Shown here: piece by piece, positions 24,724 to 41,357 of the stretch
Position numbering within the stretch: the first letter of the stretch is position 1
Layout of the letters: each line of letters opens with the position of its first letter
IMG/VR virus record: IMGVR_UViG_3300037234_000698
Length of the DNA: 64,000 bases
Origin: an uncultured virus (IMG/VR IMGVR_UViG_3300037234_000698)
Taxonomy: Duplodnaviria > Heunggongvirae > Uroviricota > Caudoviricetes
Strand: one strand, 5' to 3'
Position numbers and translations under genes: made by a program
Notes under the pieces: model-generated
What the model was told of the DNA's origin: nothing
The model's input: only the letters and a program-made list of their open reading frames with translations
Database searches by the model: none

Positions 24724-24782
24724 GGCGTCTCCTGTGCAATCTGCCTTACAACGAGCGACATACGGCCTAGACCGCTAGCGCG

Positions 24783-25406: not shown

Positions 25407-25416
25407 GATCGTTCTC

Positions 25417-26532: not shown

Positions 26533-26745
26533 CTAGCCCCAGAGATCCTTCTGGAAGTTGTCCCAGACCCTCGGAAAAACGACCAGCAGTCCGACGGCCG
26601 CGATGGCCAGAAGGCCGACGGCGCCGATGCCGCCCGCGACGCTGCCGGTTGGCTCGGGGCTGCCGCAGCAACCGATGCTCTGGAGCGGCGCGCCGTTCAT
26701 GTAGAGTCGGCTTCCCGGCATCTTCTTGTAGTAACCGTTACGCAT
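26533..26745 (-). CDS. small membrane protein
   Basis: Start MRNGYY; C-terminal TM. Confidence 0.6.
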   Translation of the reverse strand: MRNGYYKKMPGSRLYMNGAPLQSIGCCGSPEPTGSVAGGIGAVGLLAIAAVGLLVVFPRVWDNFQKDLWG

Positions 26746-26989
26746 CGGATTTCCCCTTCTCTCCCGTGATGAACTTCCGGAGCCCAAAGAACCCGGCGAT
26801 GGGAATGCCGACCAGGGCGAGCGCCTGCAGCGCTTCCCAGAATGCCGCCTTCTCCTGGGCCTTGACCCGCCGCACGTCGAGCGTGACGCTTTGCCGTTCG
26901 AGCTCGAGCCGGGCATCGTCGCGAGTCTCGCGGCGCTCGACGAGGTCGGGCGCCGCGTCCTCCTGGCCTACTGATCGGTAGTAGCTCAT
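26738..26989 (-). CDS. small membrane protein
   Basis: MSYYRSVGQ; TM followed by a basic tail. Confidence 0.7.
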   Translation of the reverse strand: MSYYRSVGQEDAAPDLVERRETRDDARLELERQSVTLDVRRVKAQEKAAFWEALQALALVGIPIAGFFGLRKFITGEKGKSDA

Positions 26990-28173
26990 CGCCCGCTTCC
27001 AACCCAGCGCGCCTGGAAGCCCTGGGGGTCGATGGCGAAGCGGCGAGCTCGCGCAAGGATCCGGCGGTAGGCCTTCTTCTGCTGCTGTTTGTGATCGAAC
27101 TCGTACTGGTTGAACCGGGCCATGGCGGCGCGAGTCCGGCCAGGGGTGTCGATGGGGAGCCCCTCGTGCTCGGGCACGGCGAAGTCGGCGCTGGGGAGCT
27201 CGTGGCGCTCCTCGGCAGTGATCGCCGGGTTGGTGGAGTAGCCCCGGAACTGGTTGAACTCGACGAGCGTTTCGCGCTCGCTCTCATCGGCGCCGGGGTG
27301 AGGGCGATAGCCCTCGTTGGGGCCGCCGTCGCCGGGGCCTGCCCAGAAAGCGATGGGGGTCGAGTCGCGATAGACGGTGCCTCCCAGCAGGGTCAGCGTG
27401 GTGTAGAGCCGCTCGCGCTCGCGGCTGCGCCTGGACGTGGCGTAGTGCGCCTCGCTGGCTCGGCCTGGGTTGGAGCGCGGCTTCATAGTGATGTCCCAGT
27501 CGCCGATGTAGCGCTCGGCGGCCTCGTCGGCTTCCCTGGGCGCCATCTGCAGCGCCTCGTCGCGGTCGTAGGAGATGGTCGACCACTCGCTTCCGAGCAG
27601 GCGGCCGTTCTGCCAGACGGCCGGTAGCCAGCCGCCCTGGCGCTCGTTCTTGTTCTTGACCACGCCGTACTCGAACACGAGCTCGTCGTCGGCGTACTCG
27701 GGTGCCGGGTTGCCGCGCACCAGGCGGTCGAGGCCCTCCTCGGTGATCTGGAGCTGCCGGCTACCGCCCTGGCCCATCACGTCCTCGACCAGTCCCGCCT
27801 TCCGCAGTCGGTTGACCGTCGTGGAGCCGAAGTGCCAGGACGACTTCGGGCCTTCGCGCTGGAGTTGGTCGAGCGCTTCGAGCTGCTTGGCGGTCAGGCC
27901 GCGCGCCGGATTGAACAGCGAGCCCTGGGGGTCGTCGGGCGGCTCGCCGCCGAAGAGAGCGCCCTGCTGTTGCTTGCGGAGCTTGGGCGGCGGCTTCACG
28001 CCTGGCGGCTTACGGTCGAGCTCGACCATGCCGATGCTCGTCTGGCCCTGCTTCCGCAGCCGGTTGAGGTGCGAGTAGGCGCGCTCTTCGTCGGCCGTGG
28101 CCGAGATGTACTCCGGAGGCTGGCCCTCGACGATGCGAGCAACGCAGTAGTAGGTGCGCGGGTTGTGCATCAT
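26986..28173 (-). CDS. NP-punctuated multi-module protein including winged-HTH-like and DUF6582-like modules
   Basis: Start MMHNP at an ATGA overlap; five NP junctions; LT..QLEAL..L...T...L...GLV...ITEEG; ER..LP..DFA.P...P......AA.ARF.Q. Confidence 0.75.
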   Translation of the reverse strand: MMHNPRTYYCVARIVEGQPPEYISATADEERAYSHLNRLRKQGQTSIGMVELDRKPPGVKPPPKLRKQQQGALFGGEPPDDPQGSLFNPARGLTAKQLEALDQLQREGPKSSWHFGSTTVNRLRKAGLVEDVMGQGGSRQLQITEEGLDRLVRGNPAPEYADDELVFEYGVVKNKNERQGGWLPAVWQNGRLLGSEWSTISYDRDEALQMAPREADEAAERYIGDWDITMKPRSNPGRASEAHYATSRRSRERERLYTTLTLLGGTVYRDSTPIAFWAGPGDGGPNEGYRPHPGADESERETLVEFNQFRGYSTNPAITAEERHELPSADFAVPEHEGLPIDTPGRTRAAMARFNQYEFDHKQQQKKAYRRILARARRFAIDPQGFQARWVGSGR

Positions 28174-28481
28174 GGCGACTCCACCCAGGCCGCCCTGGCC
28201 ATCGAGTAGCACGCGACCTGCTCGTCGTTGGCGTTCTCGACCTGCTCGCCGGCGTTCCGTCCAAGCCCGGCCGCCTGCAGAGCGGAGTTGTCGTCGTACG
28301 GCTCGGCAATGAGACGGGCGATCTCGTAGACGTAGACCTCGGCGTCGTCGAAGACGAACCAGAACCACGGCGGCGCGCTGTTCTGCTTGTGGCCGTACGC
28401 GAACCACTCCTCGAGCTCCTCGATCAGCACGCCGCGCATGATCGAAATCTCATCTCTGTCGGGTTCGTGAAAGCTCGGCAT
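28170..28481 (-). CDS. hypothetical protein
   Basis: GGAG RBS; coupled ORF. Confidence 0.65.
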   Translation of the reverse strand: MPSFHEPDRDEISIMRGVLIEELEEWFAYGHKQNSAPPWFWFVFDDAEVYVYEIARLIAEPYDDNSALQAAGLGRNAGEQVENANDEQVACYSMARAAWVESP

Positions 28482-28491
28482 CGAAGTGCTC

Positions 28492-28983
28492 CTAGACGTC
28501 GATCACCACGTTCTTGTCGACCACGACCTTCCAGGGGCACACGGCGAAGCCAAACTGGCGCCGAAGGTCGGGCTCGACCTCGAACGTGCAGGCGAACTCC
28601 GCGACGCTGAGCAGGCCGCCGGCGCCCTGGGGGAGAGCGCTGCGCATCTGCGCTGGCTTCCAGCCCGGGAACACCGGCACGCGCGCTTTTGCGTCGTACG
28701 ATACATCCTTGTTCTCGGCGCCGATCCGCAGCATCCGGGTGTTGCCGGTCATCATGCAGAGCGGGCAGATCACGTAGATGTACATCGGCTGCCCTGGCAG
28801 CTGATAGACGTCGGCTTCGAGGATGATCTCGCGCCCGTTGGGGAGCGCGTAGTAGAGCATCGGGTGGCCGATGGCGGTGCGGGTGAGGTCGTATCCGGCG
28901 GCTACGCCGCGCAGATCGGTGCCGGCCGGGTCTGGCTGATCGCCGGCTACGTAGAATGTCTCTTTGAGTGCATCTTGAGTCAT
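28492..28983 (-). CDS. hypothetical Cys-containing protein
   Basis: CPLC...C...C. Confidence 0.65.
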   Translation of the reverse strand: MTQDALKETFYVAGDQPDPAGTDLRGVAAGYDLTRTAIGHPMLYYALPNGREIILEADVYQLPGQPMYIYVICPLCMMTGNTRMLRIGAENKDVSYDAKARVPVFPGWKPAQMRSALPQGAGGLLSVAEFACTFEVEPDLRRQFGFAVCPWKVVVDKNVVIDV

Positions 28984-28992
28984 GCCCAGATG

Positions 28993-29280
28993 CTAGCGCT
29001 TCTTCTTCAGCAGCAGAACCAGAACAAGCGCTCCGGCTCCGAGGCCCACCGGGAGCAACCACTTCGGGGTTCGCCCTGGCGGCTTGCGGCCAGAGGCGGC
29101 GGCGGCCTGGGCTTTGGCGATCTCCTCGTAGGCCGCGGCCTTGCCCGCCGTCTGTTGGGCCTGCCCGTAGAAGTTCAACCCGCCCGAGAGCAGGCCCTTG
29201 ACTGTGTCCGTGAAATCGCCCATGCCTGAGTAGCCCTGGCGCGCGACGAGCTCGGTGGCTCCGACATCAAAATAGCTCAT
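28993..29280 (-). CDS. tail-anchored membrane protein
   Basis: MSYFDVGA, YSGMGD, C-terminal TM plus KKKR. Confidence 0.8.
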   Translation of the reverse strand: MSYFDVGATELVARQGYSGMGDFTDTVKGLLSGGLNFYGQAQQTAGKAAAYEEIAKAQAAAASGRKPPGRTPKWLLPVGLGAGALVLVLLLKKKR

Positions 29281-29849
29281 TTTTTCCTCCGTTTGAGAAG
29301 CACGACCAGGAGCACGAGGGCGCCCCCGCCTGCGAGTAGCAGTCCGATGGGAAGGCCCTTGCGCGGCGCGCCGGGCATTCCGGCGCCTGGACCCATTTCG
29401 GCCGTCTGCTCGGCGACCTGCTGGGCGATTCCTTCGAGGATCGCGGCCTGCTCCTCCGGGGTGCTACCCTTGCGGATCTCGTCGTAGCACTGCTGGAGCA
29501 TGTCCTCGGGCACACCCGCCTGGCGGCAGAGCGGGAAGATCACGCTCTTGCGCCCCTCGCGCACAATGGCTGGCGCGCCAGCGCGCTTGACCGCCGCGGC
29601 CAGCGACAGGCCGCGCTTGAGGTCGGCGACGCAGCCGGGCCGACGACTGACGGAGACGCCAGCATCTCTGCACTGGGAGCTCGGACTCGTGGAAGGCGTC
29701 CACTTCCCAGTCGAGACGACGGCGCAAGGGTTCTTGCCATCGGCTCGCTTGCGCCTCCAGTGGGCCGCCACGTTCCCAACTTTCGGGCACCAGACGTGAG
29801 TGGCCGCGCTGGGCGCCGCGGCTCGGGCTCCGACGGGTAGGTAGCTCAT
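29277..29849 (-). CDS. tail-anchored Cys-containing membrane protein
   Basis: MSYLPVGA; TM plus KRRKK. Confidence 0.8.
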   Translation of the reverse strand: MSYLPVGARAAAPSAATHVWCPKVGNVAAHWRRKRADGKNPCAVVSTGKWTPSTSPSSQCRDAGVSVSRRPGCVADLKRGLSLAAAVKRAGAPAIVREGRKSVIFPLCRQAGVPEDMLQQCYDEIRKGSTPEEQAAILEGIAQQVAEQTAEMGPGAGMPGAPRKGLPIGLLLAGGGALVLLVVLLKRRKK

Positions 29850-29850
29850 G

Positions 29851-30963
29851 CTATCTCCTCACGACCAGGAAGTAGTAGCCGAGGGCGGCGGCGGCCAGGC
29901 CGCCGAGGATCAGCTTGGTTCGCCGGCTCATGGGCTTGGAGGCCTCGAGCCGGGCCATGATCTCCTCCGCGGTTTCCCCTTCCTCGCCCGGGATCGGCTC
30001 GGCTTCGTAGGTCGGAATCTCGATGCGACCGCCAGTGAACATAGATGCGCCCTTCTGGGCGTAGCCGGCCTCGGTCCTGGTGAGCGCCACGCCCGCCTGG
30101 CGGGCCTTGTAGCGGCTCCAGGCGTCGTCTGCGGGCGCCAGGACGTCCCGGCGCGGCGTGCCGATGCCAGAGCCGATCTGGACGCTGGGCTGCCGGAGCG
30201 GCGGGGCGATGGTCAGGACGGGCCTTCGGGGCGCGAGGCCGACCTGGGCCGCCGTCTGTCGGCCGCTGAGAATGACCGGAGCTCGGGTCGGGCCGTACTT
30301 GCGGGTGGTGACGCCCGGGTAGATCCGCCGGACGCCGGACGACGGCCGGGCAATCGTGGGGATCCCGCGGATGACCCCGGCGGTCGGGCTTCCGGCAATG
30401 CGCCCGACGGTGGGGGCTGGAGCGCTCCGAGGCGCCGGGGCGCTCGCGGCGATGGCGCCGGCGCCCTGGTAACTGTCCGCGAAATAGGGCATATCGCCTC
30501 CTGTGCCGAGCAGGGCTGTAGACGGGCCGTAGTTCTTCCAGGCCCTCACCGCGGCGTGCTCGGGCGCCTGGGCGGGTAGGGGGCCTCCGGAGAGGCCCTT
30601 GGAGATAACGCAGTTGGCGCCGAAGACGACGCGGCCGTCGACCTCGACCTGGCAGGCGCCGGTCTGAGCTCCCTCGGGGACCACGACGGATCCGCCGTAG
30701 GGACTCATCATGGCGATGGCCTGGGCGGGGACGCCGGCGAAGCGCACCACTACCTGGCCTTGGAATTTGCCAGCGAAGTTGCCCTGGACGGTGACCACGT
30801 CGCCCCACTTGACCGTGGTCGGAAACAGCGAGGCGGGCATCGACGGCGTGGGGTGCCCCGGCGAGGCCGGGCCGGGCACGCCGCTGGCGACGTCGCCGCC
30901 GCGGCGCATTCCGTAGACTCCCGGTTGAAACTGGCCGAGAGAGTGATCACGGTAGTAGCTCAC
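29851..30963 (-). CDS. tail-anchored protein with IPT/TIG-like N-terminal domain
   Basis: MSYYRDHSLGQ; GDVVTVQG.F...V.F.G..A...VVVPEGA.TG...V; C-terminal TM plus RR. Confidence 0.72.
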   Translation of the reverse strand: MSYYRDHSLGQFQPGVYGMRRGGDVASGVPGPASPGHPTPSMPASLFPTTVKWGDVVTVQGNFAGKFQGQVVVRFAGVPAQAIAMMSPYGGSVVVPEGAQTGACQVEVDGRVVFGANCVISKGLSGGPLPAQAPEHAAVRAWKNYGPSTALLGTGGDMPYFADSYQGAGAIAASAPAPRSAPAPTVGRIAGSPTAGVIRGIPTIARPSSGVRRIYPGVTTRKYGPTRAPVILSGRQTAAQVGLAPRRPVLTIAPPLRQPSVQIGSGIGTPRRDVLAPADDAWSRYKARQAGVALTRTEAGYAQKGASMFTGGRIEIPTYEAEPIPGEEGETAEEIMARLEASKPMSRRTKLILGGLAAAALGYYFLVVRR

Positions 30964-31292
30964 TTGCCACTCCCACGAATAAACCAGCCGAGGCCCACGA
31001 GGCCGCCCACGACGGCCACGCCCACCAGGGGCAGAAGCCAGGGGCGCTGCCGCGCGTACACCACGGCCTTGAGCGGCTTGACCGCGCGACAGAGGCCTAC
31101 GCCTCCAAACTTAGGGGTTGCTCCGGTCGGGGTGAAGGAGGAGACGGCCTTGCGAGATTCGAGCTCGTTGAGCTTGAGCACCAGCGACGTCACGTCATAC
31201 AGGCACGGATCGGTCATCACCTTGGCCGCCGCTTTGGCGACCTCCCTGATGTCCGCTCCTACTGCAGTCGGGTATTTCCGCTGATAGCTCAT
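30960..31292 (-). CDS. tail-anchored membrane protein
   Basis: MSYQ...AVGAD; C-terminal TM. Confidence 0.75.
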   Translation of the reverse strand: MSYQRKYPTAVGADIREVAKAAAKVMTDPCLYDVTSLVLKLNELESRKAVSSFTPTGATPKFGGVGLCRAVKPLKAVVYARQRPWLLPLVGVAVVGGLVGLGWFIRGSGK

Positions 31293-31298
31293 GCGCGA

Positions 31299-31396
31299 GT
31301 TCCTGAAGTGGTCCGTCGGACGATTGACACATGCTGGCCAGCTCTCCGGTGTTCTCGTCAGCTTGGACCCCCCGCTCGACGGGCCACTTCAAGAAC
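31299..31396. repeat. 20-bp imperfect inverted repeat enclosing 58 nt; candidate structured RNA
   Basis: GTTCCTGAAGTGGTCCGTCG (31299-31318) versus CGACGGGCCACTTCAAGAAC (31377-31396), 18/20 complementary. Confidence 0.85.
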
Positions 31397-31408
31397 CCCC
31401 GCTGCCGC

Positions 31409-32110
31409 CTACCTCTTCTTCTTCCCCTTGAGCATTCCTTTCACTCGTTCGCCTACACCCATCTTGTCCCAAACGATCACGCCGATGACGGCGAGAGCGC
31501 CTATCTTCAGCCAGAAGCCCTCGTCGGTGCATTTGCCGGCCATCTGGCAGTCGATCTTCGCCTGGTTCTTCGCGATGTCGGCCTTCGAGCGAATGCTCGA
31601 ACTGATGACGAAGGCCACCCCGCCGACCACGATCACAAGCGGCCACATCCAAATGATGCCGGTGGCCTGCTGGACCGGCGCGTCGCCTGGCAGCTGACCG
31701 CCGATGGCGATCTTGGCGAGGTTCACCGCAGCCAGGGGATCCTTGGCAACATCAGGAGCTGGCAGCTGCGCGGGATCGAACACCTCCGAAAGGAGGGCGT
31801 AGAGCTCCAGAGCCAGCGGCTGCTCGACCGCATAGCGCCGCTCTCGAAGCCCAGACGCCAGGGCCGACGGGTGAGGCGGCCTTGCTCCCGGCCGCTTGAG
31901 TAGCGGCGTCGAGATGTCGGCGCCCCGCCCTTCGGCGAGCAGACTGATCTTTTTCCGGTAGCTGAGCCACGACTTCAGCGAGGCCTTCATGCTCTTGAGG
32001 GACGCCTTGGACCTGGCCGCGGCCTCCTTCGTGACGGGAGCGGTAGGGACGGCGTCGACCGTCATCTCGTCGGCACCCATCTGGTAGCTCACCGGGCTGT
32101 AAATGGACAT
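31409..32110 (-). CDS. two-TM membrane protein
   Basis: AGGAG RBS; MSIYSPVSYQMGAD; two C-terminal TMs; KGKKKR. Confidence 0.78.
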   Translation of the reverse strand: MSIYSPVSYQMGADEMTVDAVPTAPVTKEAAARSKASLKSMKASLKSWLSYRKKISLLAEGRGADISTPLLKRPGARPPHPSALASGLRERRYAVEQPLALELYALLSEVFDPAQLPAPDVAKDPLAAVNLAKIAIGGQLPGDAPVQQATGIIWMWPLVIVVGGVAFVISSSIRSKADIAKNQAKIDCQMAGKCTDEGFWLKIGALAVIGVIVWDKMGVGERVKGMLKGKKKR

Positions 32111-32123
32111 GGTCGCGTTCTCC

Positions 32124-32534
32124 TTAGCAGGCCCCGAGGGAGCCGAGGCCACAGCCGCCCAGCGAGCCCAGGCCGTTGCTGCCGAGGGAGCCGACTCCGG
32201 CGAGCTCCAGCGACTTGACGAGGTGGTCGCACGAGGAGGTGGGCGCACGGTTGCCCTGGAAGTTCCAGCAGACCGGCGCGCCCGACAGGTTCTTCTTGAG
32301 GAACAGCCCGTTCTTCGGGTCGATTGCGAGGATCGGCTTCGAGCCGGTGTTGCTCGGGCCGGGCTTGCCCTTCACGATCTGGCTCGTGTAGGCGGTGCCC
32401 ATCGTGATCCCCTTCGCGGCTGGCGCCGCGGCCTTGCCCTTGCCCCGCAGAAAGAAATACCAGATGCCGGCGGCGGCGACGGCGCCCCCGATCAGCAACA
32501 TGGTGGTGTCTGGGTTCTTCTTGCGTGCCATCAT
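32124..32534 (-). CDS. N-anchored membrane protein with NP motif and (G/S)LG-repeat tail
   Basis: RKKNPD, TM, ending GVGSLGSNGLGSLGGCGLGSLGAC. Confidence 0.75.
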   Translation of the reverse strand: MMARKKNPDTTMLLIGGAVAAAGIWYFFLRGKGKAAAPAAKGITMGTAYTSQIVKGKPGPSNTGSKPILAIDPKNGLFLKKNLSGAPVCWNFQGNRAPTSSCDHLVKSLELAGVGSLGSNGLGSLGGCGLGSLGAC

Positions 32535-33061
32535 TTCCTCCAGAAAAGTAACCAGAGCACACCGACGACGGCGCCGGCGAAGAGAAGCGGACTTGAGCTC
32601 GAGCCCGCGCACCGCTTGATGGTGCCAGCGCCGATCTTCTCGCCGAGCGTCATCATCCGCTCGATGATGCGGTCCTGGTTCCAGGCGACCCACATCTGCT
32701 CGGGCGTCGGCTTGGGCGTGATCGGTTCGTCCTCGGCCCACTCGGCCGCCTTGTCGAGCGCGACTTCGAGATTGCCCAGGAGGGTTTCGCGCGAGCTCGC
32801 GTTGCAGACGAAGTGCGAAACGAGGTAGCGCTGGATGCGGACGACGCGGTCGGCGTCCGTTGCGTCGATCTTGGCGTCCTGCCGAACCTTCGGGAACCCG
32901 ACCATGCCGGCGTAGGCGTTGATCGCGATCTCGATCTGCTCGGCGTTGACCTCGTCGAAGCCGTAGCGGCCGGCGGTCGCACCGCCGATCCTGACTCCCC
33001 CGACGGTGTCACCCACCGCGAGGGAGGGGCCAATCTGGCCGAATGTCGCGACTCGCGCCAT
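32531..33061 (-). CDS. tail-anchored membrane protein
   Basis: C-terminal TM plus WRK. Confidence 0.75.
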   Translation of the reverse strand: MARVATFGQIGPSLAVGDTVGGVRIGGATAGRYGFDEVNAEQIEIAINAYAGMVGFPKVRQDAKIDATDADRVVRIQRYLVSHFVCNASSRETLLGNLEVALDKAAEWAEDEPITPKPTPEQMWVAWNQDRIIERMMTLGEKIGAGTIKRCAGSSSSPLLFAGAVVGVLWLLFWRK

Positions 33062-33068
33062 GGCGAGC

Positions 33069-33716
33069 CTACAGGTTGACGATCTTGTAGCCGGGGAACC
33101 CGAAGTAGAGCTCGCCCTGCGTTGTCGGCTCGTCCACGCCGTCCGCGAACGCGATCCGCTCGTAGGTCGGCCACACGGAAATCACCGTATTCGGAGCGAA
33201 CAATGTCGGAACGGGGAGGGGGAAAAGCGCATCCGGGCGACTGAAAATTGGCCCCGCCGCTTCGTTCTGGAAGTTGCGCTGGCTGCCCGAGTCGCTGAGC
33301 TCCCAGGAGAGGTCGATCAGATCGGTGTCGAGCACCTGATCGGGAAGCGGCCAGGTCGAGACAGGACGCCACGCGCCGAAGTTGGTAGCGGTGTCTGGCG
33401 CGTTGGGCTTCCACATCGCGATGGGATAGTGCGTCGCGATGAAGGGGCCGTCCTGTGAAATGAGAAATTGGAGCGGATCGCCCCGCCTCCCGGCCAGCGT
33501 GTCGTCGAAGTCGACGCGGTCGGAGAGCGTGTAGAAGATCCGGCGGCCAGGGATGCTGTCGATCTCTTGGGTGATCGACCGCGGCTGCTCTTCGCAGGCC
33601 TGGATGAACTCCTCGTACTTGTCGAGGATGGCCTTGTGCTGGGATTCAATCGCCTTCTGGCGGCTCACCAGCTTACGGACCAAGCCGTGCAGCTGCTGCT
33701 CTTTGGTAGTCAACAT
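33069..33716 (-). CDS. probable second single-jelly-roll capsid or penton-type protein
   Basis: N-terminal helix then a beta-rich body (ISQDGPF, DSGSQRNFQN, LPVPTLF..NTVISV, YFGFPGYK); directly follows the putative MCP. The fold is inferred. Confidence 0.55.
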   Translation of the reverse strand: MLTTKEQQLHGLVRKLVSRQKAIESQHKAILDKYEEFIQACEEQPRSITQEIDSIPGRRIFYTLSDRVDFDDTLAGRRGDPLQFLISQDGPFIATHYPIAMWKPNAPDTATNFGAWRPVSTWPLPDQVLDTDLIDLSWELSDSGSQRNFQNEAAGPIFSRPDALFPLPVPTLFAPNTVISVWPTYERIAFADGVDEPTTQGELYFGFPGYKIVNL

Positions 33717-33770
33717 TGTGCTCTCCCTGGGGGGTTAGCGCCGAGGCGCTCTCTGCAGCGAGCTGCAGGT

Positions 33771-33805
33771 AAAAGGGGCCGCCGCCGAGTGGACGGCGGC
33801 CCCCT
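33771..33805 (-). terminator. intrinsic terminator downstream of the putative MCP
   Basis: 10-bp stem GGGGCCGCCG/CGGCGGCCCC (33775-33784 and 33794-33803) followed by UUUU on the minus strand. Confidence 0.8.
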
Positions 33806-33882
33806 GGTTCAGCACTTTTGGCGAGTTCAGCTGAGAGTGTGGTCGGCCTTACGGTGCGACCCTCGTCGAAGTGTAGTGGGGC

Positions 33883-34464
33883 TCACTGAACATCGCGAGT
33901 TTGTAAGCCATCTATCACATAGGTGACACACATCTGGTCGTCAGTGGCCGCGTTGTTGATGATGTCCAGCACGTTGGTCGTGCCCATCGTGAAGAACTCG
34001 GCCTTGACCGCGATGTTCTGGCGCACCGGGATGATGATCGGCCTGGCCAGCTTGAGGATGCTCTGCTGGGAGGGGTAGCCGTTGTTGTAGATACCGGCCT
34101 GCTGTGGTCCCGGCGTCCCGTAGATGCCACCGCCCGCGGGGTGATACCAGCACGGCGCGACGAACTGCGGTTTGTCGCCCAAAGTGAGGGTGAAAAACAG
34201 CTGCGAGACGGTCTGGAGGTACAGGTCACGAGCGTTCGTGCCGTCATAGTAGAGCCATGCCCGCAGGGCCAGGATGACATATGTTTGGTCACTGGCCAAC
34301 TGGCCCGCGACTTGCATGTTCGTAAGCGCCAAGTTTCCGACATTGGAGTTGCCGAACAGAATGGAGCTCGCCGGGATGGTCGCGGCCGGGCTTCCGGTCG
34401 ACCTAAGCAGCGAATCCCAAACGGGTTGGTGGCGTCTCTCTCTTACTCCGTGTACTCGTGGCAT
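33883..34464 (-). CDS. probable single-jelly-roll major capsid protein
   Basis: GAGGAG RBS, ATG at 34464 (MPRVHG), 193 aa; HQPVWD, TNMQVAGQL, PIIIP..QN, IDG..TRDVQ; beta-rich; long structured leader and its own terminator. The fold is inferred. Confidence 0.6.
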   Translation of the reverse strand: MPRVHGVRERRHQPVWDSLLRSTGSPAATIPASSILFGNSNVGNLALTNMQVAGQLASDQTYVILALRAWLYYDGTNARDLYLQTVSQLFFTLTLGDKPQFVAPCWYHPAGGGIYGTPGPQQAGIYNNGYPSQQSILKLARPIIIPVRQNIAVKAEFFTMGTTNVLDIINNAATDDQMCVTYVIDGLQTRDVQ

Positions 34465-34640
34465 CTCGACTCTCCTCTGCCCGACATGGGCTGCTGTACG
34501 TTTGATGCGGCGGGTCATTCCGCCAGGCAGGTGCCGCCTGCCGTTAGTGGCCACTAGGGCCGGTTGTCTTATAGTGCAGCGGAGAGGGCAGATGAGAGGG
34601 GGGCTGAGAGTGCAGCTATATAAAGGAAGGGTGTCCGGCG
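34465..34640 (-). promoter_or_regulatory. structured 5' leader of the putative MCP
   Basis: 34586-34598 is 12/13 complementary to the RBS region 34470-34482; internal hairpins are present. Confidence 0.6.
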
Positions 34641-35939
34641 CTAGTTGCCGAACCCGCCGGCGAAAATGCCGCCGTAGAGCACGCCGGGCTTGTCGTAGCC
34701 CGTGCCGGCCCGCGCGATCTTGCGAGTGAAGCTGCGGGTCGGGATGGCCGCCACCATAGGCTTGCGGCCGATTTGCCGGAGCATGGAACCTCGCGCGGTG
34801 CCGCCGAGGTAGGCGCGACTCAGGGGATCGCCGCCGAGCTCTTCCTCGACACCGAGATCCTCTTCCAGGCCGAGCTCCTCTTCGAGCGCGCCCAGCTCTT
34901 CCTCGAGCTGGCCGACCTCGACGTAGTCGCTCATGGTGATGTCGTCGTCGATGGGCTCGGCGCCGACTTCGAGGTAGTCGCCCACCTCGACGTAGTCAGA
35001 CATCGCCTCGTCGTAGATGCCATAGTCGGCCAGGCCGAACATGGCTTTGACGTTGGCCGGGGCGAACGCCGACAGGACGTTGTCGATCAGGTTGAGGCCG
35101 GTTCCGACCATGATGCCGGGGCGCCACTTCTTGAGCACCTTGACCTTCTTGGTCGCCATGTGCGCGCCGACGAACAGGAGGCCTGCCATCGCCGTGCTCT
35201 GGTACTGAGCCGGGATCATGTTGAAGCCGGGGATCTTGCCGGCGAGCTTGTAGCTCACGAACCGCGCGCCGTAGAGCGAAGCGGCGACTGGGAGTGCCTG
35301 CTTGATGACTCCACCGAGCGTGTTCATCTTCGCGTTGGGATTCGACCGCATCCGGTACCGGCGCTTGGTCGCGTGGGCCAGGGGCGTCTTGTACTTATTC
35401 TTGACCGACCGGCGAGCTCGCAGCATCGAGCGCTGGGTGCTCGGGCGCGGATTCCGACGCTTCCGACGGACGCGACGCTTCCGGCGACTGGCCGGGTTGC
35501 GCACGGTCACGCTCACGGTGCGGCGACGCTTGGTGGTGCGGCGGCGAGCGCGAGTGCGAGTGGCCGGCTTGCGGGTGCGGCGCCTGGCGGCTGCTTTGCG
35601 CTTGCGCGTGCGGGCGGCCTTCTTGCCAGCGGCTACGCGCTTCGGACTCTTCCGCTTCGTGGCTGCGCGCTTCGTGGTGCGGCGCTTGCGAGCCTTCCGG
35701 GCGGGGTTCTTTCGTGTGCGGCGAGCTTTGAGGCGACGCATTCGCTTGCTGTGCGCCTTCTTAGCCGCCCCGAACAGTTTTTTGGCCATGGCCGTTCTCC
35801 CTTTCGTGGCTGGTTTGGTGGCGGCGTTTTTCCGAACGCCGGTGGGCCGTCTTAGTGTTGCTCGCGAGCCTTCCGCAGTGCGACGGCGGGTGGGCCGGCT
35901 TCGTCGCTTCGGTGCTGGATTGGCGTACCAGAGTGGCAA
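34641..35939 (-). CDS. putative core/membrane protein: very basic NP-punctuated N-terminus, hydrophobic middle, acidic repeat tail
   Basis: R/K-rich first ~200 aa with ANP, RKNP, VRNP, RRNP, RSNP; DY(V/L)EVG x3; EE(E/D)LG x4; second RBS-led in-frame ATG at 35789. Confidence 0.8.
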   Translation of the reverse strand: MPLWYANPAPKRRSRPTRRRTAEGSRATLRRPTGVRKNAATKPATKGRTAMAKKLFGAAKKAHSKRMRRLKARRTRKNPARKARKRRTTKRAATKRKSPKRVAAGKKAARTRKRKAAARRRTRKPATRTRARRRTTKRRRTVSVTVRNPASRRKRRVRRKRRNPRPSTQRSMLRARRSVKNKYKTPLAHATKRRYRMRSNPNAKMNTLGGVIKQALPVAASLYGARFVSYKLAGKIPGFNMIPAQYQSTAMAGLLFVGAHMATKKVKVLKKWRPGIMVGTGLNLIDNVLSAFAPANVKAMFGLADYGIYDEAMSDYVEVGDYLEVGAEPIDDDITMSDYVEVGQLEEELGALEEELGLEEDLGVEEELGGDPLSRAYLGGTARGSMLRQIGRKPMVAAIPTRSFTRKIARAGTGYDKPGVLYGGIFAGGFGN

Positions 35940-36071
35940 GTATCTCTCCGTGGGCTACGCGAGTTCCCCGCTCGCATCGCGCGCTGACCGGAGAGTCCAG
36001 TGCTCGGTGCGAGTTGATCGAAACAGGACGGGAACCTTGTGTCAAGTCTAGTGTCGCCGTCGGCCGCCATG

Positions 36072-36560
36072 TTAGTTGACGATCCCACGCGCCTCGACGG
36101 TCAGCCGACCGCCCCAGATGAGGGCCAGCACCTTGCTCTGGTCCTGAATAACCAGCAGCGCCTTGCCGGACGGGATCGCGAAGAGCACGGGCAGCGGGCG
36201 CTTGCCCTTGGCCTCGACCTTCGAGCCGTCGGCCGCCTCGTAGGCGAAGCCCAGGCAGTCGCCGAGACGCCACAGTCCCTCGACTCCGCGGATGTAGCGG
36301 GGAACGCGGCGGTCGGGGCCGTCGGCATCGGGATCGGCGCGGTAGACGTTCACGCCGGCTTTGTGATCGTGGATGTAGTCGATCACGCCTTCGTCGGCTC
36401 CGGTCGTGGGGTTCAGCTTGTCGCTCCGGTAGAGCACGTTGACCGCCGGCCCCGCCAGGCGTGCCCACTCGGGGATGTCGAAGGATCTGGGAAACTTTCC
36501 GACCTTCCGGGGCTCGAGTTGGTGAAACTCGATGTACGACCGGACCCCGGCGACGCTCAT
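36072..36560 (-). CDS. hypothetical protein (putative virion protein)
   Basis: Coupled ORF; FH...YRSDK...YIHDH...P.L...WGGRL.V..RGI. Confidence 0.7.
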   Translation of the reverse strand: MSVAGVRSYIEFHQLEPRKVGKFPRSFDIPEWARLAGPAVNVLYRSDKLNPTTGADEGVIDYIHDHKAGVNVYRADPDADGPDRRVPRYIRGVEGLWRLGDCLGFAYEAADGSKVEAKGKRPLPVLFAIPSGKALLVIQDQSKVLALIWGGRLTVEARGIVN

Positions 36561-36862
36561 GCGACATGCTTCCAGAGGAGATAGGCGCAGAGGCCGAGCA
36601 GGCCGATCTTGACCAGGCCGCCGGACCCGTCGGTCGCGCCGAGCTCGGCGCCCCCGACCGAGGACACGCGCCCCTGGGCGTGCTCACCGGAGCCGACCAG
36701 GCGCGCCGCGGCCGGAAGCGGCCAGGCCGCCTGCGACGGCGTCGCGCCGAGGGTGCGGCTGCGAAGGTGAGTCGGCTTGCCGACGTTGGCCTTCGCCTCG
36801 ACGCCCGGCGCTTCGTAGTAGTCGAAGACGCCGGCGCCCTGGTTCCAGACGGAGTAGATCAT
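36557..36862 (-). CDS. tail-anchored membrane protein
   Basis: YSVWN....FDYYE; TLGAT, ELGAT; C-terminal TM. Confidence 0.75.
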   Translation of the reverse strand: MIYSVWNQGAGVFDYYEAPGVEAKANVGKPTHLRSRTLGATPSQAAWPLPAAARLVGSGEHAQGRVSSVGGAELGATDGSGGLVKIGLLGLCAYLLWKHVA

Positions 36863-36864
36863 GG

Positions 36865-37476
36865 CTACCCTGGCGCCTTCGCTACCGTGACGTTCCTCTT
36901 GCCGGCGCGTCGGCGCCGCGCTGCGAAGTCTTGGGCAGCGCGCTTCGTCGTGAATCTCCCCGCGACCTTGCGCCTACCACCTGGGCGCTGATCTACGCCC
37001 CAGTATTCCGCGACGTGCCATTTGATGTTCGTTCGACGAGAACGACCGCGTTTGCCCCACCGCCGGCCAGGATTGCGCCGCCGCCGCGTTGGTTTCTTTC
37101 GCACGAGGAAGTACCAGGCAGCGAGGCCCGCGGCGCCGAGCAGAAGGAGCTTCTGCTCGTTGTCGGACATGCCGGACCAGAACCCCAGCGGCGCGCCCCC
37201 TTCGCCGGGGTCAAGCGGTTCTGGTCCTGCGGGTCGGAGAGCTGGCCAGTCGCCGGGGGCAATTACGTGGGGGGGTTCGTCGGTGTCACCTTCCTCGCCG
37301 CGGAGGGCGGGGAAGTTCATTGAATAGGGAGTGAGTCCGGACTCTTCGATGTCGTACTCGCCGAGTCCGCGGCTCTCGGCAGCAGGGAGGCCCTGGGGGA
37401 CGCCGCCGGCGCCGCCATGCCAGTTGAAGGCGTAGCGACCGCCCTGGTATCCGAATCGGTAGTAGGGAGAGGACAT
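36865..37476 (-). CDS. membrane protein with basic RRRRNP tail
   Basis: RGLGE, PLGFW, TM, RRRRNPGRR. Confidence 0.75.
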   Translation of the reverse strand: MSSPYYRFGYQGGRYAFNWHGGAGGVPQGLPAAESRGLGEYDIEESGLTPYSMNFPALRGEEGDTDEPPHVIAPGDWPALRPAGPEPLDPGEGGAPLGFWSGMSDNEQKLLLLGAAGLAAWYFLVRKKPTRRRRNPGRRWGKRGRSRRTNIKWHVAEYWGVDQRPGGRRKVAGRFTTKRAAQDFAARRRRAGKRNVTVAKAPG

Positions 37477-37479
37477 GGC

Positions 37480-37779
37480 TCACTTCGCTTTCTTGCGCTT
37501 GCCGAAACCCTGCGCGATGGCAATCACGTTGGTGATCGGAGGCGAGGCCACGCCGAGCAGCGACCAGACAAGCGCCCAGGCGACGGAGTTGCTGCGCCGG
37601 TAGCCGTGGAAGGCCGCCGCAAGGCCGCCGATCACGCGCGCCTCCCTCGACCAAAGGAAATCGAGCTTGCCGGGGGTGCCAGGCGGGCTCCCAAACTGGC
37701 CCATGCCGCGCTGGTCGAGCGCGTAGTAGCGCGGCATCGGCCGCGCGTTGACTTGTCCGTTCCAGGCGGGGTGGTACAT
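37480..37779 (-). CDS. small multi-TM protein
   Basis: RGMGQ; AAFHGYRR..S..WAL.W; QGFGKRK. Confidence 0.75.
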   Translation of the reverse strand: MYHPAWNGQVNARPMPRYYALDQRGMGQFGSPPGTPGKLDFLWSREARVIGGLAAAFHGYRRSNSVAWALVWSLLGVASPPITNVIAIAQGFGKRKKAK

Positions 37780-38285
37780 CAGCGCCTCCGCTTCTTGGGC
37801 TTGTCGAAGAAGAGAAACCAGAGGCCGAAGCCGCCGAGGAGGATAAAGGTCAGCGGCATGGTCGCGACCTGCGGTGCCCTCGCTCCGATCTTGCCCTTGC
37901 CGCCGACATAGTCCGGCGCCATGAGCAGCTCGATCTCCGGCGCCGGCGCCAGGCCCCAGTCGTCGGCGTCTTCTCTGAACATGGCGGTGATCGCCTTGGC
38001 GTACTTCCCGATCTGCCTGGCGTAATCCTTGACGCCGCTCGGGCCGTGGAAGGCTTCCATTAGCTCGGCCGTTTTCCTGACTGCGGCCGTGGTTTTCGAC
38101 CCGAGGTTGCCGTCAATCTTGAGGGGGAGGTTGGGCACGGGGCCGAGGGTCCACCCCTTCGAGTTGTAGTGCTTCCCCAGGCGGTTTGTTTCCGCCTGGA
38201 GCGCGGCGAGCTGCACGTCCCCCGCGACCTCGATAGCCCCGAGGCCGCCGCTGAATCGCTCTGGTCCTGCGTCGACGTAGCCCAC
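37779..38285 (-). CDS. tail-anchored protein with peptidoglycan-binding-like (PG_binding_1) domain
   Basis: GGAGG RBS, GTG start; LQ..TN...LKIDGNLGSKTTAAV; TM plus KKRRR. Confidence 0.7.
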   Translation of the reverse strand: MGYVDAGPERFSGGLGAIEVAGDVQLAALQAETNRLGKHYNSKGWTLGPVPNLPLKIDGNLGSKTTAAVRKTAELMEAFHGPSGVKDYARQIGKYAKAITAMFREDADDWGLAPAPEIELLMAPDYVGGKGKIGARAPQVATMPLTFILLGGFGLWFLFFDKPKKRRR

Positions 38286-38295
38286 GGTGCCCTCC

Positions 38296-38886
38296 CTAGA
38301 ACCAGCTGTAGGTGACCCGGCGCTTGGCCTTCCGACGCGCCTTCCGCTTCTTCTTTGCCTTCGGCGTCTGAGACTTCCAGAGCAGAATCGCGCCGATGCC
38401 GAGCGCGGCCAGGCCGAGCGGCGAGGTGAGCGCACCGGCGAGGCCGGCGGTGCTGAGCTTCGCCTTGGGCTCGAGGGGGCCGAGGTCAATGCCCTTGCCG
38501 CTGTCGATGACGGGCGGGCCGCCCTCTGCGACCACCGCCGGCGCCCCGGCCGCCGCATTGAAGGTCTGCAGCTGGCCGATCAGGTTGTCGATGACTGTGC
38601 AGAGCGCGTCGCAGTGAGAGAAGCTGGTGCCGAAAAACGCATTGGTCGCCTTGACGGTTTCGGGGCCAGGGCGCGCGTCAACCCAGAGCGCCTTCGGAAC
38701 CGACTCGCCAGCCTTCCGTTTAACGAAGAGCGCACGGTTCAGCTCGCGCTGGTAGTCCTTGAACAGCTCTGCAGCCGGCACGTCCATCGGCTTGCAGATG
38801 TTCTTGAGCGGCTTGCACCGCCCCTGGGGGTTCTGGTCGGAACACCACTTGGTCATCTCGATGTCTGCGAAGGGGAAGTAGCTCAT
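38296..38886 (-). CDS. tail-anchored protein with degenerate PG-binding-like domain
   Basis: MSYFPFAD; YQRELN...LWVDARPGPETVKA; TM plus basic tail. Confidence 0.68.
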   Translation of the reverse strand: MSYFPFADIEMTKWCSDQNPQGRCKPLKNICKPMDVPAAELFKDYQRELNRALFVKRKAGESVPKALWVDARPGPETVKATNAFFGTSFSHCDALCTVIDNLIGQLQTFNAAAGAPAVVAEGGPPVIDSGKGIDLGPLEPKAKLSTAGLAGALTSPLGLAALGIGAILLWKSQTPKAKKKRKARRKAKRRVTYSWF

Positions 38887-38901
38887 GGTGGCCGATCCTT
38901 T

Positions 38902-39390
38902 CTAGCGGAACCACTTGTACCAGATGAGTGCGGCGGCGCCGATCCAGGGGAGCGGGCTCGCCATGACGTCGCCGAGCAGTCCCGAGAGTGGGTCCGGCGT
39001 TGCGTAGTCGTAGTCGGCCATCGGCTGCTCGTAGATGCTGCCGCCGCGGTTCACGAGCCCCTTCTCCCAGGGCTTGCCCGCGAGCACATCGCCGTAGAGC
39101 TGCGTCCACGTCTTGTCGTGCCACGCCGGGCCGGCGTACTTGCGCAGCGCGCGGATTGTCTTGATGCCGAGGCCGCCGTCCACGTCGAGGTGGGCGCCGC
39201 GCTTGTTGAGAATCTGCTGCAGACCCTGGACGATCTGAATCACGCCCTGGGCGTAGGGGTCCGAGGTCCGCGGGAGCTCGAACATGTAGGGGATAGACAT
39301 GACCGCGTTGAACTGGCCGACGCCTCCCGCCAGCAAGAGCTCGCGGACGTCCTCGAAGCGGCCCTGGTGTTTCGTGCTCGTGCTCCTCAT
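38902..39390 (-). CDS. tail-anchored protein with PG_binding_1-like domain
   Basis: VQGLQQILN..G..LDVDGGLG.KT.RAL; C-terminal TM. Confidence 0.75.
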   Translation of the reverse strand: MRSTSTKHQGRFEDVRELLLAGGVGQFNAVMSIPYMFELPRTSDPYAQGVIQIVQGLQQILNKRGAHLDVDGGLGIKTIRALRKYAGPAWHDKTWTQLYGDVLAGKPWEKGLVNRGGSIYEQPMADYDYATPDPLSGLLGDVMASPLPWIGAAALIWYKWFR

Positions 39391-40376
39391 CAGGTGTGAC
39401 CTTTCTTCTTGTCCTTCTTGAGCAGCAGCCACCACAGAAGGAACGCGACCCCGCCGTACATCGAATACTTGATGAGCTTGCCGATCATCCCGGCGGCCTT
39501 CGATGCGATGTCGGCCATGGCGGCGAGGCTGTCGGGGATGATGTCGAACGCGGCCCCGACTTTCTTGCTGACCGCCCAGACGTACTCGCCGATGGTCGCG
39601 AACACTTCCCACACGAAGTCAACGATGCCCAAGAACCAGGGCCGGATGTCTTCGAGAAAGGCGATTGTCTCGAAGAAACGCGCCACCGCGCCGAGTATGA
39701 AGATCACGCGCTCGCGAATGCCGCCGCCGGCCTGATTGCGATCCATGCACGCTGGCTGATCGTCGAGGCCGATCTCGACGGCCTTCGCTAGCGAGATGGT
39801 GCCGCGCTCGTACTTGTCGTCGGTCCAGGGCAGCCCGGCGTTCTTCTTGTACTCCTCGATGATCGGCCAGAGGGCGTTGTTGATCGGGCCGAAGCCCCAC
39901 TTCCCGTACCAGTCGTTCCGGAGGGTGTTGAAGGCCCGGTCGTATGCCTCTCCGACGTACGCCCGCGTGATCCCCTTGTTGCGAAGATCCTGGGTGAGCG
40001 CGTCCAATTTGAAAACGAAGGCGCCGAGCTCGTCGCGGATCTTGATGATGGCGGCGACGCTGGTGCAGTGTCCGGTCGCCGGCCAAGTCTTCATAAGTAG
40101 GTCGCGGTCCTCCCCTATCTGTTTGGCCAGCGACTTCATGTCCGACACCGAGGAAATCCCGAAGTCGCCATAGAGCGCCTTGGCCGGCGCCTTGGCCGCC
40201 TCCATGTCAGCCACGCTGATCACCGGCTCGCCTGTATCCGCGACCACGTCCTGCCCGAGGCCGCCGCCGAAGTGGCGACGTGGCGGGAAGCCGTTGAACT
40301 TCCGGCCGGCGAACTGGCGAAGGGTGTCGCGGTCGACCGCCTCCCACTTCGCCCTCTGGTATGCGACGTAGTCCAC
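39390..40376 (-). CDS. tail-anchored helical membrane protein
   Basis: AGGAG RBS; GGGLGQD; TM plus KKDKKK. Confidence 0.75.
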   Translation of the reverse strand: MDYVAYQRAKWEAVDRDTLRQFAGRKFNGFPPRRHFGGGLGQDVVADTGEPVISVADMEAAKAPAKALYGDFGISSVSDMKSLAKQIGEDRDLLMKTWPATGHCTSVAAIIKIRDELGAFVFKLDALTQDLRNKGITRAYVGEAYDRAFNTLRNDWYGKWGFGPINNALWPIIEEYKKNAGLPWTDDKYERGTISLAKAVEIGLDDQPACMDRNQAGGGIRERVIFILGAVARFFETIAFLEDIRPWFLGIVDFVWEVFATIGEYVWAVSKKVGAAFDIIPDSLAAMADIASKAAGMIGKLIKYSMYGGVAFLLWWLLLKKDKKKGHT

Positions 40377-40385
40377 GGCGTTCTC

Positions 40386-41357
40386 CTATTTCAGGGCCAG
40401 CACCAGGACCAGGACGCCGCCGCCGATGGCCGCCGGCAGAACCCAGCCGGGCATACCGCCAGCCGCGCCAGGGGTCGGGGTGTTCAGGGCCTGCTGCGCG
40501 GCGGCGCTGTCGCCGTTCTTGCCGCAGAGGGTCTGGGCGAAGGCGAGCCCGGTGGTTCCCGCCTGGGGCGGTGCGCCCATCGCGGCGGCGCCGGCGCCGG
40601 CCGCCAGGGGAGCGACGCTCGAGTTGGCGACAGAGCAGGCCAGGCCGCCCAGTTTCTGGACGCCCTTGCTCACCCAGCTGGTGGCCGTCGAGGCGCCGCC
40701 GGCGACCTTGCCGCCGACATACTTGGCTGCGTCGCGGACCTTCTTGGCCGCGCAGATGGGACCGCAGAAGCCCAGGGCCTGCAGCTGGCCTGGCCCGGCG
40801 GCGCGCTTCTGCAGCACCTTCTCGCCGGTCTTGACGAGCTCGGCGATCATTCCGTTGGCGAGGCACACGGCCAGCGCCTTCTGCATCGCCGCTTTCGGCG
40901 GTAGGCCCTTGGCCTTGAACTTGGCCGCTTCCGCGGCGACGCGATCCCAGAGCGACTTGTCGACCGAGTCGAGAAGAGCTCGCATCGCGATGGCGCGGTT
41001 AGCGGGCTCGACCTCGTTGATCGTCCGCATGATCCACTCCGACGCCCGAAGGCCGTAGGCCTGGATCGGGTCGCCGCCGCCGACACCGCCGAGGGCGTCG
41101 AGCTGGTAGACCTCGGCCGCGCCGAGCGTGTCGCAACCCAGGCTGCCCAGGCCCTTGTCGCAGCCGAGCGTAGCGTCGGTGCGGCCAGTGAGCTCGCGCG
41201 AAACCGGCTTGGCCAGGTAGTCGGGCACCATCTGTGAGATTGTCCCGCGCGGGAGCCACTTCGTGGTGATGGTCCCGCGGCCGGGTGGTTCCGCCATCAC
41301 GTAGTCGGGGATGGCGTAGTGTGGATTGTAGGGGTGCGGGAGGTGATAGAAGCTCAT
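40386..41357 (-). CDS. tail-anchored protein with LG repeats
   Basis: MSFYHLP; TLGCDKGLGSLGCDTLGA; TM ending LALK. Confidence 0.75.
   Translation of the reverse strand: MSFYHLPHPYNPHYAIPDYVMAEPPGRGTITTKWLPRGTISQMVPDYLAKPVSRELTGRTDATLGCDKGLGSLGCDTLGAAEVYQLDALGGVGGGDPIQAYGLRASEWIMRTINEVEPANRAIAMRALLDSVDKSLWDRVAAEAAKFKAKGLPPKAAMQKALAVCLANGMIAELVKTGEKVLQKRAAGPGQLQALGFCGPICAAKKVRDAAKYVGGKVAGGASTATSWVSKGVQKLGGLACSVANSSVAPLAAGAGAAAMGAPPQAGTTGLAFAQTLCGKNGDSAAAQQALNTPTPGAAGGMPGWVLPAAIGGGVLVLVLALK

Follow-up and report, generated by a model that had tools for sequence, protein, structure and literature searches.

In vaccinia virus, the N-terminal tail of the membrane protein A17 (MSYLRYYN) carries tyrosine residues that bind the base cavity of D13, on the membrane-facing side, and a tag beginning Met-Ser-Tyr-Tyr is also thought to bind this cavity (PMC13672803). 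A17 is cut at an AG/X site in a reaction that depends on the viral cysteine protease I7 and accompanies removal of the scaffold (PMC4213562). The capsid targeting sequence (CTS) of phage T4 is described as a short N-terminal propeptide on divergent virion proteins, with targeting residing in its first part and processing in its last, and the T4 scaffold proteins are cut into many fragments (PMC9026906). In adenovirus, the N-terminal peptides cleaved from pVI and pVII presumably occupy the mouth of the jelly-roll hexon (10.1101/2025.04.23.650237), and the lineage of the adenovirus protease AVP is assigned to the Ulp1-like family (PMC11161782). Viruses with two single jelly rolls have been argued to arise apart from the vaccinia and adenovirus lineage, and SPV1 is reported to lack a packaging ATPase (PMC8812541); the cultured phage SSIP-1 has two capsid protein types and a membrane (PMC6356626). 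Here we describe a short tag, a small residue and tyrosine followed by a hydrophobic residue and glycine (hydrophobic-Gly), on otherwise unrelated membrane proteins encoded in a 64,000-nucleotide stretch of DNA (the window) from the uncultured virus IMGVR_UViG_3300037234_000698.

The window comprises the first 64,000 bases of a record of 70,805 bases with a 127-nt direct terminal repeat, so the genome is complete and circular, at 70,678 bp. Its 123 genes were called with a custom codon-model caller, which picked starts from codon score and ribosome-binding site without reference to the tag. The tag-bearing module is a densely packed block on the minus strand. All 11 N-termini quoted in the first-pass annotation are present in the sequence, three of them with GTG starts (at 542, 30963 and 38285). 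A Kyte-Doolittle scan finds a C-terminal hydrophobic segment in all 11 proteins, in agreement with that annotation, and in none of them an N-terminal one of the Sec, Tat or lipoprotein signal type; the basic tail is likewise borne out, with at least two Lys or Arg residues directly after the hydrophobic segment in nine. The proposed [VLM]G[ADQS] motif is complete within the first 25 residues of eight; the proteins starting MSYFPFAD and MSFY lack it, and the one starting MAYVPAG has Ala-Gly-Phe.

The tag is confined to tail-anchored and core proteins and is conserved. Among the 123 genes, tyrosine is found at residues 2–4 in 14 of the 31 proteins with a C-terminal hydrophobic segment and in three of the 92 others (p 1e-7); the motif is not, then, equally common outside the structural genes. 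Tyrosine together with hydrophobic-Gly is present in 8/31 and 0/92, respectively. The group of 31 contains false positives of the hydropathy scan, which weaken the contrast and do not inflate it. As the pattern came from this same genome, the test is partly circular, and relatives were therefore analysed: a search with the capsid alignment supplied 97 loci (of 191 metagenome matches, 80 were retained), yielding 1,187 unique proteins. Counted by protein family, tyrosine at residues 2–4 is found in 98 of 161 anchored families versus 11 of 191 others; for the combined tag, the figures are 39/161 versus 1/191. In five near-whole relatives, with 652 called genes, M-[SAGPT]-Y starts occur in 26 of 103 anchored proteins versus 4 of 549 others, an excess that is significant in four of the genomes. 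These viruses are kin, so the counts show conservation and not independent origins. Outside membrane helices, [LMV]G[ADQES] is observed 40 times versus 21.6 expected in the 24 genes of 26533–41357, and 43 times versus 51.3 expected in 70 non-structural genes. Enrichment in this genome and in its relatives thus argues for what the first-pass annotation had proposed, a virus-wide, protein-level code on virion membrane proteins; the tag is real and conserved, and apparently undescribed.

The signal is a small residue and tyrosine, then hydrophobic-Gly. The serine of MSY, originally taken as part of it, does not belong to it: 82 of the 95 MSY starts in the relatives lie in an NTGA stop-start overlap, with AGC or AGT codons. 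Tyr3 is enriched in anchored genes over other genes both with the overlap (0.54 versus 0.06) and without it (0.42 versus 0.04), and tyrosine is fixed at residue 3 in 45% versus 3%. Residue 2 is small in 96% of the proteins with Tyr3, against 56% of other genes. Small second residues lead to removal of the initiator methionine by Met aminopeptidase, which suggests that the methionine is lost here as well and that a free N-terminus is read. A first hydrophobic-Gly is present in 267 of 316 Tyr-start proteins and comes earlier than in shuffled sequences (by residue 15 in 40% versus 19%). Gly, Ala or Ser stands two residues before this glycine and Ala (0.30) or Asp (0.21) directly after it, Gln following in only 5% of cases in the relatives, and tyrosine is enriched 7.5-fold at position −4. 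The short form of the tag can be written as Met-small-Tyr-x-x-x-Gly, with Gly7 in 32%; the long form has variable spacers, giving leaders of 5–59 amino acids. In nine of 13 families, two of them only marginally so, the spacer varies more than the 40 residues that follow it. The tag is also found at joints between modules, with an internal start and ribosome-binding site at 30492 and a Gly-Leu-Gly cluster in the gene at 40386–41357. Its restriction to N-termini does not hold: it recurs in the C-terminal part of the core protein and in that of the N-terminally anchored protein at 32124–32531.

The core or scaffold candidate (34641–35789, minus strand, 382 residues) belongs to a 67-member family adjoining the capsid genes. 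Its residues 1–150 hold 71 Lys or Arg and no Asp or Glu, its middle is hydrophobic, and residues 254–320 hold 25 Asp or Glu and no Lys or Arg; here, at 34833–35003, three Asp-Tyr-x-x-x-Gly and four Glu-x-Leu-Gly repeats are located. The internal repeats noted earlier are thus real Tyr-x-x-x-Gly units in an acidic tail, and they are conserved: [DE]-[YF]-hydrophobic-x-x-G is present in two to four copies in 50 of 52 homologs, and acidic-[LM]-G at least once in 51 of 52. In the anchored proteins, the net charge is +3.6 after the helix versus +0.5 before it. This suggests two faces, with the Tyr/Gly units on one side of the membrane helix and Arg runs with Asn-Pro on the other, which we treat as a lead. 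The motif [RKS]-Asn-Pro is enriched in the module, with eight observed versus 1.5 expected; its occurrences (in 26986–28173, 34641–35789, 36865–37476 and 32124–32531) tend to accompany Arg runs, on the helix side opposite the Tyr/Gly tag.

Next to the core gene are two genes for predicted capsid proteins, both on the minus strand. Capsid protein A (33883–34464, 193 residues) has 693 homologs, several of them on 70–85 kb contigs. Its structural model, with a predicted local distance difference test score (pLDDT) of 75.6, forms one beta-barrel. The best match is the SPV1 capsid protein (Z 7.4, root-mean-square deviation 3.2, 127 residues aligned), followed by capsid proteins of HHIV-2, HCIV-1 and P23-77 with Z values of 4.8–5.7 (HHIV-2 5.7, P23-77 VP17 5.0). 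Foldseek returned weak matches, mostly to viral jelly rolls and none at E <= 0.001; SPV1 has the highest TM-score among the rows listed, with an E of 0.047. Assignment of capsid protein A as a predicted single jelly roll is thus made with moderate confidence and is not decisive. Capsid protein B (33069–33716) is a likely second capsid protein, modelled as a 40-residue N-terminal helix and an all-beta domain (pLDDT 90.6). Going by these models, A, with its one barrel, and B are separate genes and not a double jelly roll in one chain. Profile comparison of A and B revealed no likeness, and neither did that of the capsid profiles with SSIP-1 gp45 and gp46 or with the capsid candidates of L107, a distant relative. 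Sequence searches of the PDB with the capsid and enzyme profiles gave nothing useful, including no solved homolog of the enzyme, and an atlas search returned only viral clusters without names. At 64733–64933 of this genome (G000), outside the window, a short plus-strand frame resembles part of capsid protein A; it is possibly a degenerate copy or due to chance.

None of the 56 proteins scanned (of 123 genes) matched a head, tail or terminase family in PHROGs or Pfam. The many membrane proteins, the lack of such matches and the kinship with SSIP-1 point to an internal lipid membrane, and the virus is likely a tailless, membrane-containing, single-jelly-roll phage. A motif scan for Walker A in the 123 called genes gave four hits. 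Two of them, recognised by eye, are an APS-kinase-like and a DnaC-like gene and the other two are implausible, which leaves, within the reach of such a scan, no candidate for a packaging ATPase. Nor did the scan find one in the relatives G001–G005, which with G000 span 70–82 kb.

Directly upstream of the tag module lies a gene for a predicted transglutaminase-like cysteine enzyme (41369–41902, minus strand), 177 residues long from a GTG start and a candidate maturation protease. The 147-residue ATG form matches PF01841 with 23.9 bits, against a cut-off of 23. The putative triad of Cys99, His137 and Asp154 is invariant in a 71-row homolog alignment, and the triad motifs are intact in all 25 locus homologs and in the best 120 of 884 database homologs. 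Of the 25 loci that extend 8.7 kb or more upstream, 24 have the enzyme there, ahead of the module, and in the 25th it runs across the contig end; it is also present in all five near-whole relative genomes. In L001 (1037–2512), an intein-like insert of about 310 residues, recognised by eye from its ends and with endonuclease-like motifs, is placed exactly at the catalytic Cys; L095 and L106 appear to carry a similar insert in the enzyme. Gly sites similar to those of the tag are found in the N-termini of the enzyme itself, in 11 of 13 members of a distant clade and in 39 of 61 extended forms of the near clade. Among 50,697 phage records, the only match to the enzyme is SSIP-1 gp34 (E 3e-4). Its annotation is that of a structural protein, and Gly-Met-Gly-Glu stands before its C-terminal anchor. 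In L107, too, the homolog is tail-anchored, and such anchoring would put the catalytic domain of both enzymes on the leader side; as 12 of 13 listed close homologs of the L107 enzyme have no anchor, anchoring is sporadic. The 77-kb virus L107 (9878–18541) has the same gene order, with Met-Phe-type starts replacing Met-x-Tyr. Most small microbial members of the transglutaminase-like superfamily with known activity are proteases. The comparison with poxvirus and adenovirus cleavage at Gly in the first-pass annotation stands in part: a candidate cutting enzyme does adjoin the module, but it is assigned to PF01841 and not to the adenovirus or poxvirus protease family.

The reading we prefer, at a probability of about one half, is by analogy with these systems. 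The tag would be a two-part leader, the Tyr end of which docks membrane proteins on capsid subunits, while an enzyme cuts after the Gly; the targeting leader and the Gly cleavage site, earlier offered as alternatives, are then probably both correct, as parts of one bipartite tag. Removal of Met would expose the small residue and Tyr. As in vaccinia A17 with D13 and adenovirus pVI and pVII, the Tyr peptide would bind a capsomer cavity, at the inner face of the predicted single-jelly-roll subunits, and so recruit any membrane protein that carries it; the core protein would dock likewise through its tandem Asp-Tyr-x-x-x-Gly copies. On the far side of the helix, the genome may be bound by the core protein's Arg-rich N-terminal region together with the basic tails of the small proteins, so that shell, membrane and DNA would co-assemble without a packaging ATPase. 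The enzyme at 41369–41902 would then cut on the C-terminal side of Gly, with Ala, Asp, Gln or Ser usually the next residue; this would detach the membrane proteins from the shell, break up the acidic Glu-Glu-Leu-Gly run and prime the particle for entry. More tentatively, and with less than even odds, this could be extended to a widespread group of 70–90 kb single-jelly-roll viruses, which would have arrived independently at a poxvirus-style morphogenesis: a Tyr leader plugging the capsomer cavity, a motorless wrapping of membrane round an Arg-rich core and a protease that cuts all leaders at Gly, releases the shell and arms the particle.

The same tag may also never be cut. Tyr-x-x-x-Gly would then be a strand or turn cementing the membrane proteins to the capsid, and the enzyme would act elsewhere, for example on the host envelope. 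The tandem conserved copies in the core protein and the C-terminal copies in the 32124 family do resemble a series of binding units, four of 13 families conserve the leader better than what lies downstream, a related enzyme fold is found beside lysis genes in L110, and the virus encodes peptidoglycan-binding-like and M23/SLT proteins. We nonetheless think such a purely adhesive role rather unlikely, as the preference for small or acidic residues after Gly and the free spacer length fit a cut site, and the enzyme has no signal peptide and adjoins the virion module in those 24 of 25 loci with enough DNA. Conversely, the tag could serve protease recognition only, with Tyr bound upstream and Gly at the cut, in which case leaders would be disposable propeptides that hold proteins inactive and docking would use other surfaces. 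In its favour, Tyr precedes Gly by four residues both in the short form and in the core repeats (7.5-fold at −4; Gly7 in 32%). It is a doubtful explanation all the same: long leaders keep Tyr3 while the Gly site moves 5–59 residues away, farther than a single active-site cleft can reach, the need for a small residue 2 suggests that a free N-terminus is recognised, and SSIP-1 and L107 retain the enzyme without a Tyr start.

The membership of PF01841 in the transglutaminase-like superfamily, and the Gln that follows Gly in several leaders, would suit a ligase. Like a sortase or transglutaminase, it would react with the Gly site, or with a Gln close by, and join membrane proteins to the capsid or the core by cross-links. 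This is improbable, given that Gln follows Gly so rarely in the relatives (5%), that the tag does not stand just before the anchor as in sortase signals, a few families excepted, and that the small microbial enzymes of this superfamily are, where their activity is known, mostly proteases. It is a shade less probable still that the tag directs membrane insertion or export, with an insertase of the host or the virus reading it and the N-terminal domains crossing without a classical signal peptide. The charge bias predicts that the basic tail is inside, and an N-terminal hydrophobic segment is absent from all 11 listed proteins; but the Tyr/Gly unit also occurs internally in the core protein and C-terminally in N-anchored proteins, and the tail-anchored lytic enzymes at 56139–56699 and 59430–60062 do not have the tag. 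Finally, gene overlaps, codon bias and Gly-rich disordered ends could produce the pattern as a by-product. The overlap does account for Ser2, in the 82 of 95 cases mentioned, and for Ser2 only. Tyr3 is about ninefold enriched with or without it and not in non-anchored genes, and it is only in the virion membrane module that hydrophobic-Gly is commoner than in shuffles of matched composition, so that an artefact of this kind is largely refuted and very improbable.

Several observations weigh against docking followed by cutting. Met-x-Tyr starts are absent from SSIP-1 and L107, although both encode the enzyme, and a related fold is located in the lysis region of L110; the latter, retrieved for its enzyme, proved to be an unrelated tailed phage. 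The four families of 13 in which the leader is better conserved than the part that follows fit a retained binding peptide equally well. The site is loose, with Ala, Thr and Gln all accepted at residue 6 of the short form; the dipeptide Leu-Gly is common; [VLM]G[ADQS] is missing from the first 25 residues of three of the 11 proteins listed; and only three of 18 members of the 40386 family have an early Gly site. One of the five near-whole relatives, G004, shows no excess of M-[SAGPT]-Y (1/18 versus 2/118), and G[LM]G in the SSIP-1 late genes is found nine times versus 5.3 expected. Given the separate origin argued for viruses with two single jelly rolls, the vaccinia and adenovirus parallel is analogy only. 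The two-face arrangement failed with a loose Asn-Pro pattern, seven of 22 families being opposite, and held (8/10) only with a stricter pattern chosen afterwards. Positively charged segments of membrane proteins tend to remain inside; with the charge bias observed, this positive-inside rule would have the leader domains lie outside the cytoplasm although no signal peptide is present, a topology that the model leaves unexplained unless the membrane is an open sheet.

The module genes are given here by falling coordinate, those on the minus strand first. With sub-threshold matches set aside, 21 of 22 module proteins (28492–41357 and 542–1101) have no PHROGs or Pfam family. The first (40386–41357) is tail-anchored, with an MSFY start and its Gly-Leu-Gly cluster at residues 69–94 (41076–41153); L001 and L003 have two separate genes there. 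It is followed by a tail-anchored protein (39390–40376) with a GTG start, Tyr3, Gly-Leu-Gly-Gln near residue 40 and a basic tail, and by one (38902–39390) without a leader that has a weak peptidoglycan-binding match (PF09374, E 3e-4, below the cut-off). The tail-anchored protein at 38296–38886 starts MSYF, lacks an early hydrophobic-Gly and has a long basic tail, and that at 37779–38285 has a GTG start and MGYVDAG, then Gly-Leu-Gly-Ala. A small membrane protein (37480–37779) has Tyr2 and Gly-Met-Gly-Gln at residues 25–28; a single-helix membrane protein (36865–37476) has Tyr and Gly-Leu-Gly before the helix and an Arg run with Asn-Pro after it. In the tail-anchored protein at 36557–36862, with Tyr3, the family alignment reveals conserved Leu/Met-Gly sites mid-protein and just before the anchor.

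Beyond the core and capsid genes, the tail-anchored protein at 32531–33061 has no Tyr but Val-Gly-Asp at residue 17. The protein at 32124–32531 is anchored at its N-terminus, with a basic Asn-Pro before the helix and C-terminal Gly/Ser-Leu-Gly repeats (32133–32198); its counterparts end in Gly/Ser-Leu-Gly or Glu-Glu-Leu-Gly repeats. A two-helix membrane protein (31409–32110) has the leader MSIYSPVSYQMG, and a tail-anchored one (30960–31292) the leader MSYQRKYPTAVG, which in relatives is 5–28 residues long. The tail-anchored protein at 29851–30963 has a GTG start, MSYYRDHSLG, and a second in-frame leader from 30492 with its own ribosome-binding site, AGGAGG; L004 and L081 have separate genes whose N-terminus the internal segment resembles. 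The frame is likely a fusion of two genes or the source of two products. The remaining minus-strand genes encode tail-anchored proteins with the leader MSYLPVG and a basic tail (29277–29849) and with MSYFDVG and a family-conserved Tyr-Ser-Gly-Met-Gly-Asp at residues 17–22 (28993–29280), a small membrane protein with the leader MSYYRSVG (26738–26989) and a 70-residue membrane protein with a Tyr-rich start and Ile-Gly before the helix (26533–26745). On the plus strand are a tail-anchored protein with a GTG start and MSYSSVG (542–859) and a small membrane protein starting MAYVPAG (862–1101), whose relatives with similar starts keep Tyr3 and Gly7 and vary residue 6. In comparison with sortase signals, the helix and basic tail are present, and Leu/Met-Gly just before the helix in some families only.

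Outside the module, 19766–26433 holds a run of paralogous beta-rich proteins with a common N-terminal block, likely spike or vertex proteins, which have neither the Tyr tag nor anchors. The genes at 9595–10110, 16501–19432, 58494–59420 and 61402–61851 include an APS-kinase-like gene (by eye), a sulfotransferase, glycosyltransferases and a dual-specificity-phosphatase-like gene, and sulfated glycosylation of the particle is possible. An SLT transglycosylase and M23 peptidases are encoded at 56088–56699, 59430–60062 and 62022–62651; two of these are C-terminally anchored, without a Tyr leader. Sequencing runs that match this DNA are of marine sediment DNA, two of them possibly its source, with no RNA run among those listed. 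Relatives L081–L088 are found as 68–89 kb contigs (one of 5.6 kb) inside genome bins of unrelated phyla, so the bin labels likely do not give the host.

Literature searches, outside of which most subscription papers fell, including the primary paper on SSIP-1, returned nothing on the tag, the enzyme or the virus group. Dedicated maturation proteases are known in eukaryotic jelly-roll viruses and in tailed phages; we know of none shown for tailless membrane-containing phages. If the two-part leader is correct, the same dock-then-cut solution would have arisen in another capsid lineage, by means of a different enzyme, and the coupling of shell, membrane and genome in a virus without a packaging ATPase would be explained. 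The tag also provides a simple rule for spotting virion proteins in a large unannotated virus group, that of the 693 capsid homologs. As SSIP-1 is cultured and carries a homologous enzyme as an annotated virion protein, the proposed cutting is testable.

SSIP-1 is also a close point of comparison in gene content, sharing gp33 and the C-terminus of gp43 with module genes, and it has G[ML]G in gp34, gp36, gp37 and gp53. A conserved soluble protein of a 43-member family (36072–36560) is homologous to the C-terminus of gp43, a structural protein of 2,319 residues. SSIP-1 differs in its genome of 43.8 kb, the absence of Met-x-Tyr leaders, the membrane anchor of gp34 and the P-loop protein gp40, which has no homolog in G000 or G001–G005. 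SPV1 provides the best structural match to capsid protein A, although a Z of 7.4, under 8, may mean only a common fold; its host is archaeal, and the part of the SPV1 account consulted mentions no shared leader or maturation protease (PMC8812541). The FtsK-HerA packaging ATPase of the Helvetiavirae has no counterpart among the 123 called genes by the Walker A motif scan. The Odin group of Yutin et al., considered for its lack of an ATPase, was dropped on account of its 7–11 kb genomes and double jelly roll (PMC5894146).

The T4 CTS resembles the tag in being a short N-terminal peptide common to virion proteins that, by sequence, are otherwise unrelated. In T4, however, soluble proteins are the cargo, the serine protease gp21 cuts after L/I-X-E and the particle is a tailed-phage head, whereas the tag described here is carried by membrane-anchored proteins, its site has Gly at the end, the spacer varies in length and the adjoining enzyme is assigned to PF01841. 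In the consensus sites of the adenovirus protease, Gly stands at other positions. Adenovirus has no internal membrane, and its protease is of another family, Ulp1-like in that lineage (PMC11161782). The vaccinia system of A17, D13 and I7 has in common with this locus a viral membrane protein with a Tyr-bearing N-terminal tail that ends at a Gly site, but there a single protein carries the tail and here at least a dozen unrelated ones do; D13 is a double jelly roll, whereas capsid protein A is predicted to be one barrel of 193 residues. An Ulp1-like protease of the I7 or adenain type was not matched here: the candidate belongs to PF01841 and has Cys before His and Asp, while in the I7 and adenain family His comes first in the catalytic order. 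The likeness to vaccinia would thus be by convergence and does not imply homology. As the enzyme family differs from those of vaccinia, T4 and adenovirus, and the capsid architecture from those of vaccinia and adenovirus, the system described here would work like them without being a member of any of them.

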